Under the pieces are notes generated by a model. That model worked only from the letters and a program-made list of their open reading frames with translations. It made no database searches and was not told the DNA's origin. Of a stretch of DNA of 64,000 nucleotides, positions 2,879-14,372 are shown piece after piece. A program made the translations under genes and the position numbers. Origin of the DNA: Escherichia coli (GTDB taxonomy: Bacteria > Pseudomonadota > Gammaproteobacteria > Enterobacterales > Enterobacteriaceae); assembly GCF_011045215.1 (NCBI RefSeq), contig NZ_CP049201.1, one strand, 5' to 3'. The number at the start of each line of letters is the position of its first letter. Positions within the stretch are counted from its first letter, which is position 1.

Positions 2879-3538
2879 ATGAGCGAACAAATCACGTTTG
2901 CCACCAGCGATTTTGCCAGTAACCCGGAACCACGTTGCCCCTGCATTCTGCTGCTGGATGTTTCTGGCTCGATGAGTGGCAGACCTATTAATGAACTTAA
3001 CGCCGGATTGGTTACCTTTCGTGATGAACTGCTTGCTGATCCGCTGGCTTTAAAAAGAGTGGAACTCGGCATTGTGACGTTCGGCCCGGTGCATGTGGAA
3101 CAACCCTTTACCAGCGCCGCTAATTTTTTTCCGCCCATCCTGTTTGCCCAGGGCGATACACCAATGGGTGCGGCCATTACCAAAGCCCTGGATATGGTAG
3201 AGGAGCGGAAACGTGAGTATCGTGCAAATGGTATTTCGTATTATCGCCCGTGGATTTTCCTGATTACCGATGGTGCACCAACCGATGAGTGGCAGGCTGC
3301 AGCCAACAAAGTGTTTCGGGGGGAAGAAGATAAAAGGTTTGCTTTCTTTTCCATCGGTGTTCAGGGGGCGGATATGAAGACGCTGGCACAAATTAGCGTT
3401 CGTCAGCCTTTGCCTCTGCAAGGATTACAATTCCGTGAACTGTTTAGCTGGTTATCCAGTTCGCTGCGTTCGGTTTCCCGCTCCACGCCGGGAACGGAAG
3501 TTGTGCTGGAAGCGCCAAAAGGCTGGACGTCAGTGTGA
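2879..3538 (+). CDS. yegL: von Willebrand factor A (vWA) domain protein YegL
   Basis: 219 aa; MIDAS-like motif [11 protein letters not shown] near N-terminus; matches K-12 YegL length and sequence. Confidence 0.9.
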
Positions 3539-4296
3539 GCTGGCGTCTGGTCTATGCATCAACCGTTGGAACGTCGCACATCAGCGCGGACTTGCCTTGT
3601 CAGGATGCCTGCCAGATGCAGATTGCCTGGTTAAATGACCAGCAGCCATTATTGTCGGTATTTGTCGCTGATGGCGCAGGCAGTGTCTCGCAGGGTGGCG
3701 AAGGCGCGATGCTCGCCGTCAATGAAGCGATGGCTTATATGTCGCAAAAAGTGCAGGGCGGGGAATTGGGGCTTAATGATGTCCTCGCCACAAATATGGT
3801 ACTGACCATTCGTCAACGACTTTTTGCCGAGGCGGAAGCCAAAGAATTAGCGGTTCGCGATTTTGCCTGCACATTTCTGGGACTGATTTCATCGCCTGAC
3901 GGCACCTTGATTATGCAGATTGGCGATGGCGGCGTGGTGGTAGATTTGGGTCACGGTCTGCAATTGCCTCTCACGCCGATGGCGGGTGAATATGCCAACA
4001 TGACGCACTTCATTACCGACGAAGATGCCGTTTCCAGACTGGAAACTTTCACCAGCACTGGGCGTGCGCACAAAGTTGCAGCATTTACGGATGGTATCCA
4101 GCGACTGGCGTTAAATATGCTGGATAATTCTCCTCATGTGCCTTTCTTTACCCCGTTTTTCAATGGACTGGCGGCAGCAACGCAGGAACAACTCGATTTA
4201 TTACCTGAATTGTTAAAGCAGTTTTTGTCCAGCCCGGCGGTAAACGAGCGTACGGATGATGATAAAACGTTGGCACTGGCGCTGTGGGCAGAGTGA
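3535..4296 (+). CDS. yegK: PP2C-family Ser/Thr phosphatase-like protein YegK
   Basis: 253 aa; GTG start overlapping yegL stop (GTGA); Asp/Gly-rich metal-binding-like motifs ([14 protein letters not shown]). Confidence 0.85.
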
Positions 4297-4360
4297 GTTT
4301 CTCATGGCGGTTGAAGACAACAATTCAACCGCCAGTTTAAACAATAAATATAACGGCTGA

Positions 4361-4822
4361 TTAGCGAACTAATTTTGCTCTTAGCTCGTCGGCTTCTTCT
4401 TTTGGATAGGTGACCAATAAAGGATCAATGGTATAACCGCCGTAAATTTTATCCCCGCGCGTATACATCCAGTCTGAAATATCTTCTTTCTTGATTTTCC
4501 ACTCCTGGCCATATTCTACGTTTGTAACAATACCAGGGTCATTGCTGATTACGCCAATAAACATGCCGTTAGAATAAGTGACATCCGTAAGCCAGAAATG
4601 CTCGGTTCTTCCGTGATCGGTTATCGGGGCTTTGACTGCGAAAGTATCGGCATCTTTTTTATTCATAACCTCGATGAATTTATCGGTTTCTTTCCGCGCA
4701 TGTTTAATCGCGTCAGACATCGCTTGTTTATCATAACCTCCCGTCACTAACGTATCCGAAACTTCACTAAAGCCCGCGGTAGTAAAAAATAGCAGACTCA
4801 ACATAAGTAATATCTTTTTCAT
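4361..4822 (-). CDS. yegJ: Secreted protein of unknown function YegJ (N-terminal signal peptide)
   Basis: 153 aa; MKKILLMLSLLFFTTAGFS signal-like N-terminus; matches K-12 YegJ. Confidence 0.85.
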   Translation of the reverse strand: MKKILLMLSLLFFTTAGFSEVSDTLVTGGYDKQAMSDAIKHARKETDKFIEVMNKKDADTFAVKAPITDHGRTEHFWLTDVTYSNGMFIGVISNDPGIVTNVEYGQEWKIKKEDISDWMYTRGDKIYGGYTIDPLLVTYPKEEADELRAKLVR

Positions 4823-5021
4823 TTTTTCTCCAGAATCCCTTTGTAGTCAAAGTTAGCAAAAACCTGTGGAAGTTAATCATTATCAGGCCGAAATTGAATT
4901 GTATCCTGATAAAATTGCATTATCATTTTTATTCTTGAGTGGGTTTTCCCTATATAGAAATAATTTTAATGGTTAGTTGTTATTATTCATTGAAATATAA
5001 TATAACTACCCGCGAAATATT

Positions 5022-6968
5022 ATGAAAACAAATATGAAAGTATTTACATCGACAGGTGAATTGACCACTCTTGGCCGTGAACTGGGCAAAGGTGGTGAAG
5101 GCGCGGTTTATGATATCGAGGAGTTTGTCGATAGCGTCGCCAAGATTTATCACACGCCGCCACCCGCCTTAAAACAGGACAAACTTGCCTTTATGGCTGC
5201 GACAGCTGACGCGCAGTTGTTGAATTATGTCGCCTGGCCGCAGGCAACGCTTCACGGTGGACGAGGCGGAAAAGTTATCGGTTTTATGATGCCAAAAGTT
5301 TCTGGTAAAGAACCGATTCATATGATCTATAGCCCGGCACATCGTCGCCAGAGTTACCCTCATTGTGCGTGGGATTTTCTACTCTATGTTGCGCGCAATA
5401 TTGCTTCATCTTTTGCTACGGTTCACGAGCACGGGCACGTCGTGGGTGACGTAAACCAGAACAGTTTTATGGTAGGTCGCGACAGCAAAGTGGTACTGAT
5501 TGATAGCGACTCCTTTCAGATTAACGCCAATGGCACACTGCATTTATGCGAAGTCGGCGTGTCGCATTTTACGCCGCCAGAGCTACAAACCTTGTCGTCA
5601 TTTGTCGGCTTTGAACGCACAGAAAATCACGATAATTTTGGCCTTGCGTTGCTGATTTTTCACGTCTTGTTTGGTGGCCGGCATCCTTATTCTGGTGTGC
5701 CGCTTATCTCTGATGCGGGTAATGCGCTGGAGACGGATATTACCCATTTCCGTTATGCCTACGCGTCAGATAATCAGCGACGTGGTTTAAAACCGCCGCC
5801 ACGATCGATTCCGCTATCGATGTTACCGAGTGATGTTGAAGCCATGTTTCAGCAGGCATTCACGGAAAGTGGCGTGGCAACCGGGCGTCCGACGGCTAAA
5901 GCGTGGGTAGCGGCACTTGATTCTCTGCGCCAACAGTTAAAGAAATGTCCCGTTTCGGCAATGCATGTTTATCCCGCTCATTTGACCGACTGCCCGTGGT
6001 GTGCGCTGGATAATCAAGGCGTTATCTATTTTATTGATCTCGGCGAAGAGGTCATTACCACCAGCGGTGATTTTGTGCTGGCGAAAGTCTGGGCGATGGT
6101 GATGGCGTCAGTAGCACCGCCAGCATTGCAATTGCCATTACCCGATCATTTCCAACCGACTGGCAGGCCGCTTCCTTTAGGCCTGTTACGGCGCGAATAC
6201 ATCATTCTGATTGAGATCGCACTGTCAGCGTTATCGCTGTTGCTTTGCGGCCTTCAGGCAGAACCGCGTTATATTATTTTGGTTCCTGTGCTGTCGGCTA
6301 TCTGGATTATTGGCAGTCTGACAAGCAAAGCGTACAAAGCAGAAGTTCAGCAACGCCGTGAGGCATTTAATCGCGCGAAAATGGACTATGACCATTTAGT
6401 CAGCCAGATCCAACAGTTGGGCGGGCTGGAAGGTTTTATCGCCAAACGGACGATGCTCGAAAAAATGAAGGACGAAATGCTCGGGTTACCGGAAGAAGAA
6501 AAACGTGCTCTGGCAGCACTTCACGACACCGCAAGGGAACGGCAGAAGCAGAAGTTTCTGGAGGGATTTTTTATTGATGTTGCCTCTATTCCCGGCGTTG
6601 GCCCTGCGCGTAAAGCGGCGTTACGGTCCTTTGGTATTGAAACAGCAGCGGATGTTACCCGTCGTGGGGTTAAGCAAGTGAAAGGGTTTGGTGATCATCT
6701 GACCCAGGCAGTTATCGACTGGAAAGCAAGTTGCGAACGCCGTTTTGTGTTCAGGCCGAATGAAGCGGTAACGCCAGCAGACAGACAAGCGGTAATGGCG
6801 AAAATGACCGCCAAACGACATCGGCTGGAATCGACGTTGACTGTCGGCGCGACAGAGTTGCAGCGATTCCGCCTTCATGCTCCAGCACGGACCATGCCGT
6901 TGATGGAACCGTTACGTCAGGCGGCAGAAAAACTGGCTCAGGCGCAGGCTGATTTAAGCCGCTGCTGA
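5022..6968 (+). CDS. yegI: Hanks-type (eukaryote-like) Ser/Thr protein kinase YegI
   Basis: 648 aa; N-terminal kinase-like region, hydrophobic segment LIEIALSALSLLLCGL...VPVLSAIWIIGSL, C-terminal helix-hairpin-helix-like motifs (IPGVGPARKAAL; VKGFGDHLTQAV). Confidence 0.9.
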   Translation: MKTNMKVFTSTGELTTLGRELGKGGEGAVYDIEEFVDSVAKIYHTPPPALKQDKLAFMAATADAQLLNYVAWPQATLHGGRGGKVIGFMMPKVSGKEPIHMIYSPAHRRQSYPHCAWDFLLYVARNIASSFATVHEHGHVVGDVNQNSFMVGRDSKVVLIDSDSFQINANGTLHLCEVGVSHFTPPELQTLSSFVGFERTENHDNFGLALLIFHVLFGGRHPYSGVPLISDAGNALETDITHFRYAYASDNQRRGLKPPPRSIPLSMLPSDVEAMFQQAFTESGVATGRPTAKAWVAALDSLRQQLKKCPVSAMHVYPAHLTDCPWCALDNQGVIYFIDLGEEVITTSGDFVLAKVWAMVMASVAPPALQLPLPDHFQPTGRPLPLGLLRREYIILIEIALSALSLLLCGLQAEPRYIILVPVLSAIWIIGSLTSKAYKAEVQQRREAFNRAKMDYDHLVSQIQQLGGLEGFIAKRTMLEKMKDEMLGLPEEEKRALAALHDTARERQKQKFLEGFFIDVASIPGVGPARKAALRSFGIETAADVTRRGVKQVKGFGDHLTQAVIDWKASCERRFVFRPNEAVTPADRQAVMAKMTAKRHRLESTLTVGATELQRFRLHAPARTMPLMEPLRQAAEKLAQAQADLSRC

Positions 6969-6979
6969 GCCATTTTCTT

Positions 6980-8332
6980 TTAACGAAATACCACTTCTGC
7001 CCAGCGTGCCAGCCCGGCGGTGACGGAGCCAAAGTCATCGCCGCCTGCAATCGGAATGCCCGGCAACTGTTCTGCCAGCGCTTTTTTAATCAGCGGCGAA
7101 CGGGCGCTACCGCCGGTCAGGTAGATAACGTCCGGTTTTTCCTGGGCGTTATCCAGCGCCAGTTGCACCTGTTCCAGAATCCGCGCCAGTGGCTGGCTGA
7201 GGGCGCTTTCCAGCCCTTGCTGGCTAATCAGCGTAGCCAGTTCATCGCTGATAAACGGCAGTGAGGCGCGGGTTTCCGCAGTGCTTGAAAGGGCGATTTT
7301 GCTCTCTTCTGCGCTACGCACCAGGCGATAGCTTAAACGCTGACGCCAGACTTTCTGTAACAGGGCCACTTTTTCCGGTTCGCGGGCATCGCGTACCAGA
7401 TCGTTAAGCAGACGACCGTTGGCACTACTGTAGAAATCACTCTGTGCAGGAACGTCGTTGATGGCAACCGCATTCCACCACGGCAGAATCGGCAGGGCGA
7501 TGCCTTTTTCGGTTTCGCCACCCATGCCCAGTAACGGCATCAGGTTTTTAAACGCCAGCGCGATATCCAGATCGTTACCGCCAATACGGCAACCACTGTG
7601 ACCCAGCAGGCTGGCTTCACGATCGAGACGCGAACGCCACTGCGGCCCCATCAGCAGCAATGAACAGTCAGTCGTACCACCGCCGATATCCACCACCAGC
7701 ACCCGTTTTTCTTCCTGCAAGGTGGCTTCGTAATCCAGCCCAGCCGCGACCGGCTCGTACTGGAATACCACGTCCCTGAATCCGGCACGCTTCGCCGCGC
7801 GTTCCAGAATCCCTTGCGCCTGGGTGTTTGCTTCATCACCGCCCAGCCCCTGGAAGTTGATCGGACGACCAATCACCGCCTGAGTAATCGCTTCTGGCAG
7901 CTGTGCCTGCGCCTGCTGGCGAATGTGCAACATCATTGCGCAGACCAGATCCTCAAACAGCGCTACCTGCTGCGGTTTTAAGCCGCTGGCACCGAGGAAC
8001 GATTTTGGTGATTTCACAAACCACACTTCTTCTGGATCATCAATGTACTGTGCCAGTGAGGAAAGACCGAACTGCACGCTTTTCGCCGTAACATCGATAT
8101 CTTCTTCGCGGTTATAACGAATCGCCCGACGTAACAGCGCCTGCGTTTCATCGTCGTCTGCCGGAACATCATGATGGCGGTACAGCCATTCGCTTACCGC
8201 TTCACGCGTTGGCGCGCAAAGCATTGAAGGCAGCAGCGTGCTGTCGTTTTCCATTTTTAGCAAATGCGGTTTACCGTCACGCATGACCGCCACTGAACAG
8301 TTTGCTGTACCGTAATCAAAACCAATAAACAC
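6980..8332 (-). CDS. yegD: Hsp70/actin-fold ATPase YegD (DnaK-like, no obvious substrate-binding domain)
   Basis: Track ORF 6980..8395; start set at GTG 8332 (MFIGFDYGTANCSVAV), giving 450 aa as in K-12. Phosphate-binding motifs FDYGTAN and VVDIGGGTTD. Confidence 0.88.
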   Translation of the reverse strand: MFIGFDYGTANCSVAVMRDGKPHLLKMENDSTLLPSMLCAPTREAVSEWLYRHHDVPADDDETQALLRRAIRYNREEDIDVTAKSVQFGLSSLAQYIDDPEEVWFVKSPKSFLGASGLKPQQVALFEDLVCAMMLHIRQQAQAQLPEAITQAVIGRPINFQGLGGDEANTQAQGILERAAKRAGFRDVVFQYEPVAAGLDYEATLQEEKRVLVVDIGGGTTDCSLLLMGPQWRSRLDREASLLGHSGCRIGGNDLDIALAFKNLMPLLGMGGETEKGIALPILPWWNAVAINDVPAQSDFYSSANGRLLNDLVRDAREPEKVALLQKVWRQRLSYRLVRSAEESKIALSSTAETRASLPFISDELATLISQQGLESALSQPLARILEQVQLALDNAQEKPDVIYLTGGSARSPLIKKALAEQLPGIPIAGGDDFGSVTAGLARWAEVVFR

Positions 8333-8465: not shown

Positions 8466-9314
8466 ATGTATACCCTGAACTGGCAGCCGCCGTATGACTG
8501 GTCGTGGATGTTGGGATTTCTCGCCGCCCGTGCAGTGAGTGGTGTGGAAACGGTCGCTGAGGATTATTATGCCCGTAGTCTGGCGGTGGGCGAATATCGC
8601 GGCGTGGTGACTGCTATTCCGGATATAGCCCGCCATACTCTGCACATAAATTTAAGTGCAGGTTTAGAACCCGTTGCCGCTGAGTGTCTGGCGAAAATGA
8701 GCCGCCTGTTTGATCTGCAATGTAACCCGCAGATTGTTAACGGTGCGTTGGGCAAGTTAGGCGCGGCGCGGCCCGGATTGCGTTTACCCGGCTGTATTGA
8801 TGCTTTTGAGCAGGGTGTGCGGGCGATTTTAGGCCAACTGGTGAGCGTGGCGATGGCGGCAAAATTGACTGCCAAAGTTGTACAGTTTTATGGCGAACGG
8901 CTGGATGATTTTCCGGAGTATATCTGCTTCCCCACGCCTCAGCGGCTGGCAGCAGCCGACCCGCAGGCATTAAAAGCGTTAGGCATGCCGTTGAAACGGG
9001 CAGAGGCACTGATTCATCTGGCAAATGCGGCGCTGGAGGGCAGCTTACCAATGACAATTCCGGGCGATGTGGAGCAGGCGATGAAAACGCTGCAAACTTT
9101 TCCGGGTATCGGGCGCTGGACGGCGAATTATTTCGCTTTGCGTGGCTGGCAGGCGAAAGATGTTTTTCTGCCGGATGATTATCTGATTAAACAGCGATTT
9201 CCGGGGATGACACCGGCACAAATCCGCCGTTATGCCGAGCGCTGGAAGCCCTGGCGTTCTTATGCGCTGTTGCATATCTGGTATACGGAAGGCTGGCAAC
9301 CAGACGAAGCATGA
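8466..9314 (+). CDS. alkA: 3-methyladenine DNA glycosylase II
   Basis: 282 aa, matches AlkA length and sequence (HhH-GPD glycosylase). Confidence 0.92.
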   Translation: MYTLNWQPPYDWSWMLGFLAARAVSGVETVAEDYYARSLAVGEYRGVVTAIPDIARHTLHINLSAGLEPVAAECLAKMSRLFDLQCNPQIVNGALGKLGAARPGLRLPGCIDAFEQGVRAILGQLVSVAMAAKLTAKVVQFYGERLDDFPEYICFPTPQRLAAADPQALKALGMPLKRAEALIHLANAALEGSLPMTIPGDVEQAMKTLQTFPGIGRWTANYFALRGWQAKDVFLPDDYLIKQRFPGMTPAQIRRYAERWKPWRSYALLHIWYTEGWQPDEA

Positions 9315-13790: not shown

Positions 13791-14372
13791 ATGCGTCTGT
13801 GTGACCGAGATATTGAAGCCTGGCTTGATGAAGGCCGTTTGTCGATCAACCCACGTCCGCCAGTGGAGCGTATTAACGGCGCGACGGTGGATGTACGCCT
13901 GGGCAATAAATTTCGTACCTTCCGTGGTCACACGGCAGCGTTTATCGATCTGAGCGGTCCCAAAGATGAAGTGAGCGCCGCGCTTGACCGCGTGATGAGC
14001 GATGAGATCGTTCTCGACGAGGGCGAGGCGTTCTATCTTCACCCAGGAGAGCTGGCGCTGGCGGTGACGCTGGAGTCGGTGACGCTGCCAGCCGATCTGG
14101 TGGGCTGGCTGGACGGGCGTTCCTCTTTGGCGCGTCTGGGGCTGATGGTGCACGTCACCGCGCACCGTATCGATCCGGGCTGGTCTGGCTGCATTGTGCT
14201 GGAGTTCTACAACTCCGGTAAGCTGCCGCTGGCGCTGCGTCCGGGCATGTTAATTGGTGCGCTGAGCTTTGAGCCGCTTTCCGGCCCGGCGGCGCGACCT
14301 TACAACCGCCGTGAAGATGCGAAATATCGCAACCAGCAGGGCGCGGTAGCCAGCCGAATCGATAAAGACTAA
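13791..14372 (+). CDS. dcd: dCTP deaminase
   Basis: 193 aa, matches Dcd. Confidence 0.93.

Follow-up and report, generated by a model that had tools for sequence, protein, structure and literature searches.

The window analysed here, a stretch of 64,000 nucleotides from the Escherichia coli contig NZ_CP049201.1 (assembly GCF_011045215.1), carries near its start three genes – yegL, pphC (also called yegK) and yegI – that encode, in this order, a von Willebrand factor A (vWA) protein, a PP2C phosphatase and an atypical Ser/Thr kinase. Judged from its distribution over genomes, this triad (yegLKI) appears to be a self-contained and horizontally mobile cassette of three genes. It has the architecture that defines TerY-P, a class of vWA + PP2C + kinase systems, but escapes the sequence models that define the same class: yegLKI is a distinct TerY-P-like family undetected by current defence-finding models. 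We propose, with confidence evenly divided, that it is a TerY-P-like, phosphorylation-based conflict switch, by now a fixed part of the core genome of Escherichia.

The discovery is not categorically new. An earlier note on this DNA had described a vWA, PP2C and Ser/Thr kinase triad of the TerY-P type, together with secreted YegJ and Hsp70-like YegD, as an under-described module of unresolved function. It was right that the genes are annotated in K-12, but the description was overstated: YegI and PphC have been characterised biochemically, and TerY-P is a known class with validated anti-phage activity. Added here are the boundary of the three-gene unit, a complete account of how YegI is built, evidence on how widely the family is spread and how mobile it is, its association with defence islands, and its standing as a distinct TerY-P-like family.

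Extent and distribution of the unit

The segment reads mdtA-ibs/sib-yegL-pphC(yegK)-yegJ-yegI-yegD-alkA-dgcE, the reverse of the K-12 orientation (listing of open reading frames (ORFs) and megablast), and the locus is 98.4% identical to that of K-12 MG1655. By megablast, 5381 of the 5426 complete E. coli genomes (99%) contain the yegLKI locus, with coverage above 80%. The genes yegL, yegK, yegJ, yegI and yegD all lie where the earlier note had placed them (lengths in amino acids, aa):

2879-3538, + strand: yegL, 219 aa, TerY-type vWA protein (Pfam VWA, 1.7e-9)
3535-4296, + strand: pphC (yegK), 253 aa, GTG start (Pfam PP2C_2, 6.4e-52)
4306-5040, 735 bp: yegJ-bearing insertion with AT-rich spacer (gap in the alignment against E. 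coli PM7)
4361-4822, - strand: yegJ, DUF2314 (2.9e-25), signal-peptide-like N-terminus, predicted secreted
5022-6968, + strand: yegI, 648 aa
5022-5936, + strand: yegI residues 1-305, atypical eukaryotic-like Ser kinase domain (fold match and published activity)
5937-6014, + strand: yegI residues 306-331, predicted CHCC zinc knuckle (invariant residues and AlphaFold model)
6192-6344, + strand: yegI residues ~391-441, membrane hairpin of two hydrophobic helices (sequence and model)
6558-6752, + strand: yegI residues ~513-577, cytoplasmic (HhH)2 domain, between coiled-coil helices 442-512 and 585-647
6980-8332, - strand: yegD, 450 aa (HSP70, 1e-14; NCBIfam NF008673, 811 bits over residues 1-450)

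One genome per species was scanned with a YegI profile, which gave 56 loci, four from Escherichia and 52 from elsewhere. In 45 of the 52 non-Escherichia loci yegL, yegK and yegI follow one another in this order on one strand (tblastn), as they do in E. coli genomes that lack yegJ. Thus co-conservation outside E. coli, by which the earlier note had proposed to judge its module, was found for three of the genes, and its assignment to the TerY-P type agrees with their order. The other seven loci are cut off by contig ends, rearranged (one), interrupted (one) or reduced to the kinase (two). All-against-all clustering of the flanking ORFs in the 56 loci revealed no recurrent fourth gene.

These comparisons bear directly on the five-gene module of the earlier note, in which YegD and a secreted YegJ act together with the kinase, the phosphatase and the vWA protein. 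The genes are adjacent in the window, moderate overexpression of yegJ has been reported to strongly up-regulate yegD in K-12, and the authors of the yegJ study speculate that YegJ shares a pathway with PphC and YegI. Comparative genomics nevertheless largely refutes such a module, which we consider highly improbable. YegD has the Hsp70/actin-fold phosphate motifs that had been read in it (DYGT, DIGGGT and LTGG), in line with its HSP70 and NF008673 matches; its match to the HSP70 model takes in positions 2-349 of 599 and covers the nucleotide-binding domain only, so that YegD is predicted to be an Hsp70-like actin-fold ATPase without a substrate-binding domain. Its gene is convergent with yegI and not co-oriented with the triad. 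In Salmonella and Citrobacter, where YegD is 88-91% identical, the order is dgcE-alkA-yegD-ibs-mdtA and the triad is absent from this syntenic site; conversely, none of the 52 loci outside Escherichia has YegD beside the triad, and YegD and AlkA accompany it only in the four Escherichia loci (tblastn). Since YegD is present in Enterobacteriaceae that lack the triad and missing from triad loci outside Escherichia, it is best read as a vertically inherited enterobacterial bystander rather than a triad component. The same triad-free gene order suggests that the triad was inserted between yegD and a pre-existing ibs locus in an Escherichia ancestor, and has since become fixed.

The case of yegJ is similar. 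While its signal-peptide-like N-terminus agrees with the earlier prediction of secretion, the gene lies in a low-GC stretch (0.37 over 4306-5040), and the yegJ region is carried by only 1933 of the 5426 E. coli genomes (~35%). In E. coli PM7, which lacks this stretch, yegL, pphC and yegI overlap. No yegJ was found by tblastn in any of the 56 triad loci, and YegJ homologues elsewhere are small proteins of similar size. The gene yegJ is a later insertion which split an ancestral pphC-yegI overlap, not a part of the triad, and in the window, as in K-12, it has uncoupled yegI from yegL-pphC. The pattern of presence and absence fits the difference between K and B strains in the literature. Neither YegD nor YegJ can therefore be kept as a module member, and for experimenters the three-gene unit specifies both what to clone (a yegJ-less allele) and what to omit (yegD and yegJ).

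The 56 loci come from Gamma-, Beta- and Alphaproteobacteria, Acidobacteriota, Planctomycetota, Cyanobacteria, Actinomycetota, Myxococcota, Verrucomicrobiota, Lentisphaerota and Chloroflexota: the triad is spread over about nine phyla in the same gene order. A profile search of 1.84 billion representative proteins places 6794 clusters (at 50% identity, E<=1e-30) in the YegI family; among the best 150 matches nearly all align over almost the full profile, most being ~645 aa long and some having C-terminal extensions. The kinase domain was found on 47 non-Escherichia plasmids, many of them conjugative. Two of these, the Pseudomonas megaplasmids pQBR103 and pVIM-24, have all three triad genes annotated in unchanged order. 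A Chromobacterium homologue is associated with a Tn7-like element.

Carriage by phages was also considered, because YegL, YegK and YegI match three function-unknown PHROGs almost end to end (508, 485 and 1502 bits). It was rejected: tblastn of 50,697 phage records gave two weak matches only, and phage genomes are thus essentially devoid of triad homologues. The three PHROGs are probably chromosomal genes that entered through over-extended or mis-bounded prophage calls.

Some loci depart from the common plan. In a Candidatus Obscuribacterales metagenome-assembled genome (L053, 3442-14603) the triad is rearranged: the PP2C gene is encoded on the other strand, and the vWA gene comes after that of the kinase. 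This triad is followed by a 1515-aa protein with multiple kinase domains, one of which matches the TerY-P STK_OB model (170 bits). In L019 (8001-14945) the kinase gene is apparently interrupted by ~5 kb, the N-terminal part ending at 9002 and the C-terminal part resuming at 14037, and in L042 (4371-9975) two tandem kinase paralogues follow a single vWA-PP2C pair. A few betaproteobacterial loci have a small ORF of ~70 aa and a staphylococcal-nuclease (SNase) gene directly upstream on the same strand (L059, 7719-8474; L063, 7700-8501; also L005, L006, L013 and L026); the SNase gene may be a lineage-specific accessory or effector.

Proteins of the triad

The motif DVSGSMSG at residues 27-34 of YegL, which the earlier note had taken for a metal-ion-dependent adhesion site (MIDAS), is indeed one: the protein matches Pfam VWA, and the site is complete (D27, S29, S31, T94, D131) and invariant in 23-46 homologues. 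N15/R19, S193, S195, V199 and S200 are likewise invariant in these homologues, and an N-terminal NPEPR motif and a C-terminal Ser-rich tail (WLSxSxxSVSxS, residues 191-202) are invariant or nearly so. YegL is the slowest-evolving member of the triad: across phyla its identity is 50-85%, versus 29-65% for YegK and 31-62% for YegI (tblastn, triad loci).

The GTG start of pphC overlaps the stop codon of yegL as GTGA (3535-3538), and this overlap predicts translational coupling of the two genes. Both the overlap and the PP2C-like Asp/Gly motifs had been seen before; the PP2C_2 match spans residues 11-220, and alignment of homologues shows D24, D46-G47, G130-D131-G132, D186-G187 and D242-D243 to be invariant. 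PphC was reported as the first PP2C-like phosphatase of E. coli: it is an active, Mn-dependent enzyme which dephosphorylates YegI and is inactivated by D46N (Rajagopalan and Dworkin), and the K-12 protein is less active than that of B strains. The gene is divergent between E. coli lineages, with 85-96% nucleotide identity to yegJ-less E. coli (3501-4300) as opposed to 98-100% in the flanks, a peculiarity already noted in the literature. Positive selection was rejected as its cause. Since dS is raised as well (0.19 versus 0.04-0.06) and dN/dS is 0.14-0.18, the divergence points away from diversifying selection and towards old haplotypes, or recombination associated with the insertion of yegJ. 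The divergent haplotype itself is linked to that insertion. Between the convergent pphC and yegJ lies a hairpin (~4307-4334) that looks like a bidirectional terminator.

YegI is less readily classified. Of the profile searches suggested in the earlier note, Pfam supported the VWA, PP2C and HSP70 domains, and only Pkinase gave no match; the sole Pfam match of YegI is a marginal HHH_5. NCBIfam recognised only LanL/LanKC kinase cores, and a 39-sequence profile searched against the PDB found nothing better than TTK (E=0.002). An AlphaFold model built on the 39 homologues (pLDDT 89.9) nonetheless resembles PknA, PknB and Aurora B, the top Foldseek matches (E ~3e-7, TM-score 0.63-0.71, 15-18% identity over ~300 residues). 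The kinase loops read VGD in place of HRD and DSD in place of DFG, and K41, G142-D143, D161, D163-S164, T184, E187, D204 and R289 are invariant in the 39 homologues. In vitro YegI autophosphorylates on serines with second-order kinetics and prefers Mn; activity requires K39 and D141 (REL606 numbering) and the DSD loop, and is abolished by K39D and D141N (Rajagopalan and Dworkin). The fold match and the published biochemistry together establish YegI as a real but atypical kinase. The earlier description as a 648-aa Hanks-like kinase is right in its length and is supported by the bilobal fold and the invariant K41 and D143, while the absence of a Pkinase match and of HRD and DFG tells against the family label.

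Directly after the kinase lobe comes the element C309-x5-H315-x8-C324-P-W-C327, in which C309, H315, C324, W326 and C327 are invariant in the 39 homologues. In the model it forms a hairpin and helix (strands 306-308 and 316-318, helix 325-331), and it is probably a zinc knuckle, metal binding being suggested by the conserved residues and the predicted fold. A disordered linker leads from here to the hydrophobic helices at 391-410 and from 415 onwards. In published work, PhoA-LacZ fusions identify this hairpin as an inner-membrane anchor with both ends cytoplasmic; the kinase and the C-terminal part therefore both face the cytoplasm. In other phyla some relatives possess periplasmic domains and a third segment in the membrane, or much longer linkers and coiled coils, with the order of the core constant. 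The alphaproteobacterial and myxococcal homologues L034, L035 and L037 are longer at the C-terminus by 280-400 residues, which include a third membrane segment; repeats in L035 that resemble peptidoglycan-binding domains suggest a periplasmic add-on in some lineages.

If the triad were a relic – formerly mobile, silent by now in E. coli and heading for loss, with the yegJ insertion as its first lesion – its very low published expression would be accounted for, as would the splitting of the operon in 35% of genomes, the lower activity of K-12 PphC, and the frameshifted or interrupted yegI of some Escherichia sp. loci (L002, L003). Yet dN/dS within Escherichia is 0.03-0.06 for yegL, 0.14-0.18 for yegK and 0.12-0.18 for yegI, so that all three genes are under purifying selection across Escherichia species. 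Taken with the retention of the locus in 99% of genomes, the intact catalytic and MIDAS residues in the window and the activity of both enzymes in vitro, this renders decay improbable.

Kinship with TerY-P, genomic context and a proposed function

TerY-P (Gao et al. 2020) protects E. coli against T7-like phages, and a Pseudomonas aeruginosa variant protects against Autographiviridae, most cells surviving. As canonical reference we used the system cloned from E. coli G3/10, whose start was taken from the supplement of Stokar-Avihail et al. and located in the G3/10 genome (L069 7001-10260, corresponding to NZ_CP060075.1 59618-62877; vWA 277 aa, PP2C 239 aa, kinase 561 aa). Only 4 of 5426 complete E. 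coli genomes carry canonical TerY-P, within an island that also holds a type I restriction-modification (RM) system and an IS5-family element, whereas yegLKI is core; because yegLKI is nearly universal, the two probably coexist in those four strains.

The order and orientation of the genes (vWA, PP2C, kinase) are the same in both, both vWA proteins are of the TerY type with a MIDAS, and both are stand-alone cassettes that occur beside restriction-modification genes. The TerY-P kinase, like YegI, is an atypical Ser/Thr kinase missed by Pfam Pkinase, and the two are remotely similar (hhalign 77%, E=2e-5), with an unusual GDxxxxN catalytic loop and an IDxD loop replacing DFG in common. The vWA proteins are remotely related (BLASTP E=0.007; hhalign 89%, E=2e-6), while between the PP2C proteins no relation is detectable beyond the family level. 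The kinases also differ in architecture: that of TerY-P is soluble with a C-terminal OB fold, whereas the model of YegI shows no OB fold but the predicted zinc knuckle, followed by the membrane hairpin, the coiled coil and (HhH)2. With the PADLOC v2 models TerY, PP2C and STK_OB, YegL reached 11.8 bits (E=0.03) on TerY, and YegK and YegI gave nothing; a search for membership via PADLOC and NCBIfam was negative even at E<=10. The G3/10 proteins, as a positive control, score 572, 358 and 878 bits on the same three models.

Other systems come close in part. The TerY-P triads of CoCoNuT (type II/III-A, McrBC-like) have a kinase that is C-terminally fused to a zinc ribbon, by description a parallel to the CHCC knuckle of YegI, which, unlike that kinase as described, continues into a membrane hairpin and (HhH)2; nor do CnuH, CnuE or McrBC genes recur beside yegLKI-type triads in the 56 loci. 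With the Hanks-type kinase/PP2C pairs (PknB-PstP, PrkC-PrpC, Stk1-Stp1) the triad has in common the bilobal kinase fold, a PP2C from the same operon that dephosphorylates the kinase, and activation-loop autophosphorylation with dimer-type kinetics. YegI differs from these kinases by having no extracellular PASTA sensor and by missing HRD, DFG and 3 of 10 canonical residues, and yegLKI differs from the pairs by its obligatory vWA partner, its cytoplasmic module of DNA-binding type and its horizontal distribution through defence islands. The defence kinases PD-T4-6 and MkoA of Mokosh match the kinase core of YegI weakly (E ~1e-4, far below family level). They and Stk2 exemplify the Ser/Thr kinase as itself the immunity effector, an idea in common with yegLKI, but lack partners of the vWA or PP2C kind and are built differently.

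A further line of evidence is provided by neighbouring genes outside Escherichia. Precomputed Pfam contexts of six homologues placed four among defence or mobile-element genes and one among housekeeping genes, and were uninformative for one. Neighbours of the triad include GmrSD, SymE, BrnA and a type I RM system in Klebsiella spallanzanii; NYN, an SLFN-type helicase, MazG, ScoMcrA/NOV_C (McrA-like), HIT, SNase, BrxR and JetB in Piscinibacter; and AbiH, a KAP NTPase and the Tn7-like transposon in Chromobacterium. A metagenomic contig (L062) has type I RM and Mrr genes immediately downstream. In 27 further loci, 40 large neighbouring ORFs were scanned with PADLOC (E<=1e-8), with ten large housekeeping proteins of the window as control: 13 of 40 neighbours matched versus none of ten controls (Fisher p=0.034; binomial p<1e-4 even at 10% background), in a small sample picked by size and proximity and with a small control. 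The strongest matches are to Avs2 (2426 bits), type I REase (1247), type I MTase (903) and a cytosine methylase (Dcm, 341); clear family matches comprise LmuA, a WYL regulator, a PifA/QatA-like ATPase, PD-T4-6-like kinases, a caspase-like protein and PDC-S26, and one weak match is DrmD/BrxH-like, some of the matches being to generic domains (kinase, methylase). Such a pattern is the 'guilt by association' signature used for discovering defence systems. Outside Escherichia the triad is often found in defence islands, and by its neighbours it looks, as the earlier note had supposed, like a phospho-signalling or conflict module rather than a set of housekeeping genes.

The same neighbourhoods speak to an idea first proposed for TerY-P triads, namely a Ter-type sensor of metal or tellurite stress in which the MIDAS of YegL would sense a metal or metalloid and kinase and phosphatase would relay the signal. 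YegL, whose MIDAS is intact, belongs to the TerY-type vWA proteins, and YegI and PphC both prefer Mn; but beside the triad no ter genes (TerB/C/D/Z) or metal transporters recur in the 56 loci, the neighbours being defence and mobile-element genes instead, and canonical TerY-P acts against phages. We regard metal sensing as quite improbable.

The conflict switch that we propose would operate as follows. At rest, PphC would strip YegI of its phosphates. Invasion would be signalled on the inner side of the membrane, most likely by foreign DNA on its way in, or by a DNA-protein complex, to which the zinc knuckle and (HhH)2 bind; the signal would cluster YegI dimers, such that trans-autophosphorylation outruns PphC. 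Active YegI would then phosphorylate YegL, whose Ser-rich tail is a candidate site, and other proteins of host or invader, and YegL, by way of its MIDAS, could serve as a metal-dependent adaptor for acidic or phosphorylated ligands. In this way, and as in TerY-P, DNA of the phage or mobile element would be blocked although no nuclease is dedicated to the task. A link to DNA is independently supported by a genome-wide overproduction screen in E. coli: YegL ranked with the strongest DNA-damage-up proteins, and overproduced YegI increased endogenous damage at least 5-fold.

Several points weigh against this proposal. To the absence of any PP2C relationship beyond family level, the poor PADLOC scores, the housekeeping context of at least one YegI homologue and the sampling and generic domains of the neighbour scan must be added that the triad is a core gene set at one fixed locus in 99% of E. 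coli, unlike the typically patchy defence systems, and that no obvious effector domain is present in the triad. We found no report linking yegLKI to phage or plasmid defence and no published phenotype; expression is very low, with no condition found to make it robust, and the region has been deleted from the genome-reduced strain DGF-298, which makes it dispensable for laboratory growth. E. coli B carries the intact, unsplit operon. Both B and K-12 are classical hosts of phages T1-T7, and there is therefore no visible protection against these phages at native expression.

Much of this would be expected of the main competing explanation: a domesticated endogenous Ser/Thr phospho-switch, serving for example stationary-phase, envelope or DNA-damage physiology through host substrates, with no role in defence. 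It accommodates the single locus shared by nearly all E. coli and by other Escherichia species, the strong purifying selection, expression reported as weak and confined to stationary phase, and the perturbation of DNA integrity by overproduced YegL and YegI. It also fits that ~100 Ser/Thr phosphoproteins of E. coli still lack an assigned kinase. Only eight Ser/Thr/Tyr protein kinases, YegI among them, are known in this species. Less easily accommodated are the sporadic horizontal spread beyond Escherichia (plasmids, a Tn7-like element, defence islands), the absence of the triad at the syntenic site in the sister genera Salmonella and Citrobacter, the deletion in DGF-298, and the want of a known substrate or phenotype. 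We treat domestication as a serious but tentative alternative.

The conflict switch can be put in a stronger form, in which thousands of clusters make up a large family of immune or anti-mobile-element switches missed by current tools: an atypical kinase anchored in the inner membrane detects foreign DNA on entry through its cytoplasmic zinc knuckle and (HhH)2 and stops the invader by phosphorylation, with a MIDAS-bearing vWA adaptor and a PP2C reset, the whole being core-fixed in E. coli, which is unusual among defence systems. Taken in full, this extended form is doubtful. Were the conflict switch confirmed, a widespread TerY-P subtype with a membrane-anchored kinase of DNA-binding type, undetected by PADLOC, would be added to those known, and E. 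coli would exemplify a species that has fixed a defence-type cassette in its core genome. For YegI and PphC, the subject of two biochemical papers so far, the tie to TerY-P and to defence islands suggests a specific, testable function.

Adjoining genes

Between mdtA and yegL lies a type I toxin-antitoxin array:

1928-2070, 2256-2398 and 2584-2732, - strand: three Sib RNAs (137-142 bits)
1943-1999, 2271-2327 and 2599-2658, + strand: three Ibs ORFs, each opposite one Sib RNA

The earlier note had attached weight to the position of the triad beside this array. The adjacency is real, but its significance was overstated: the array is ancestral at the site, and the adjacency is therefore an accident of where the triad was inserted. 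Transcription of the ibs genes runs in the direction of yegL, and a search directly upstream of yegL for a sigma-70 consensus promoter gave none at the threshold used, so that read-through from ibs into yegL is possible.

MdtA (mdtA, 417-1811) and the adjacent MdtB were flagged in the same DNA-damage overproduction screen as YegL and YegI. Four matches in one short segment may be a coincidence, or a shared effect of membrane-protein overload. The number of ibs copies at this site varies: three in tandem in the window, two in E. coli PM7 and one in annotated Salmonella and Citrobacter loci.

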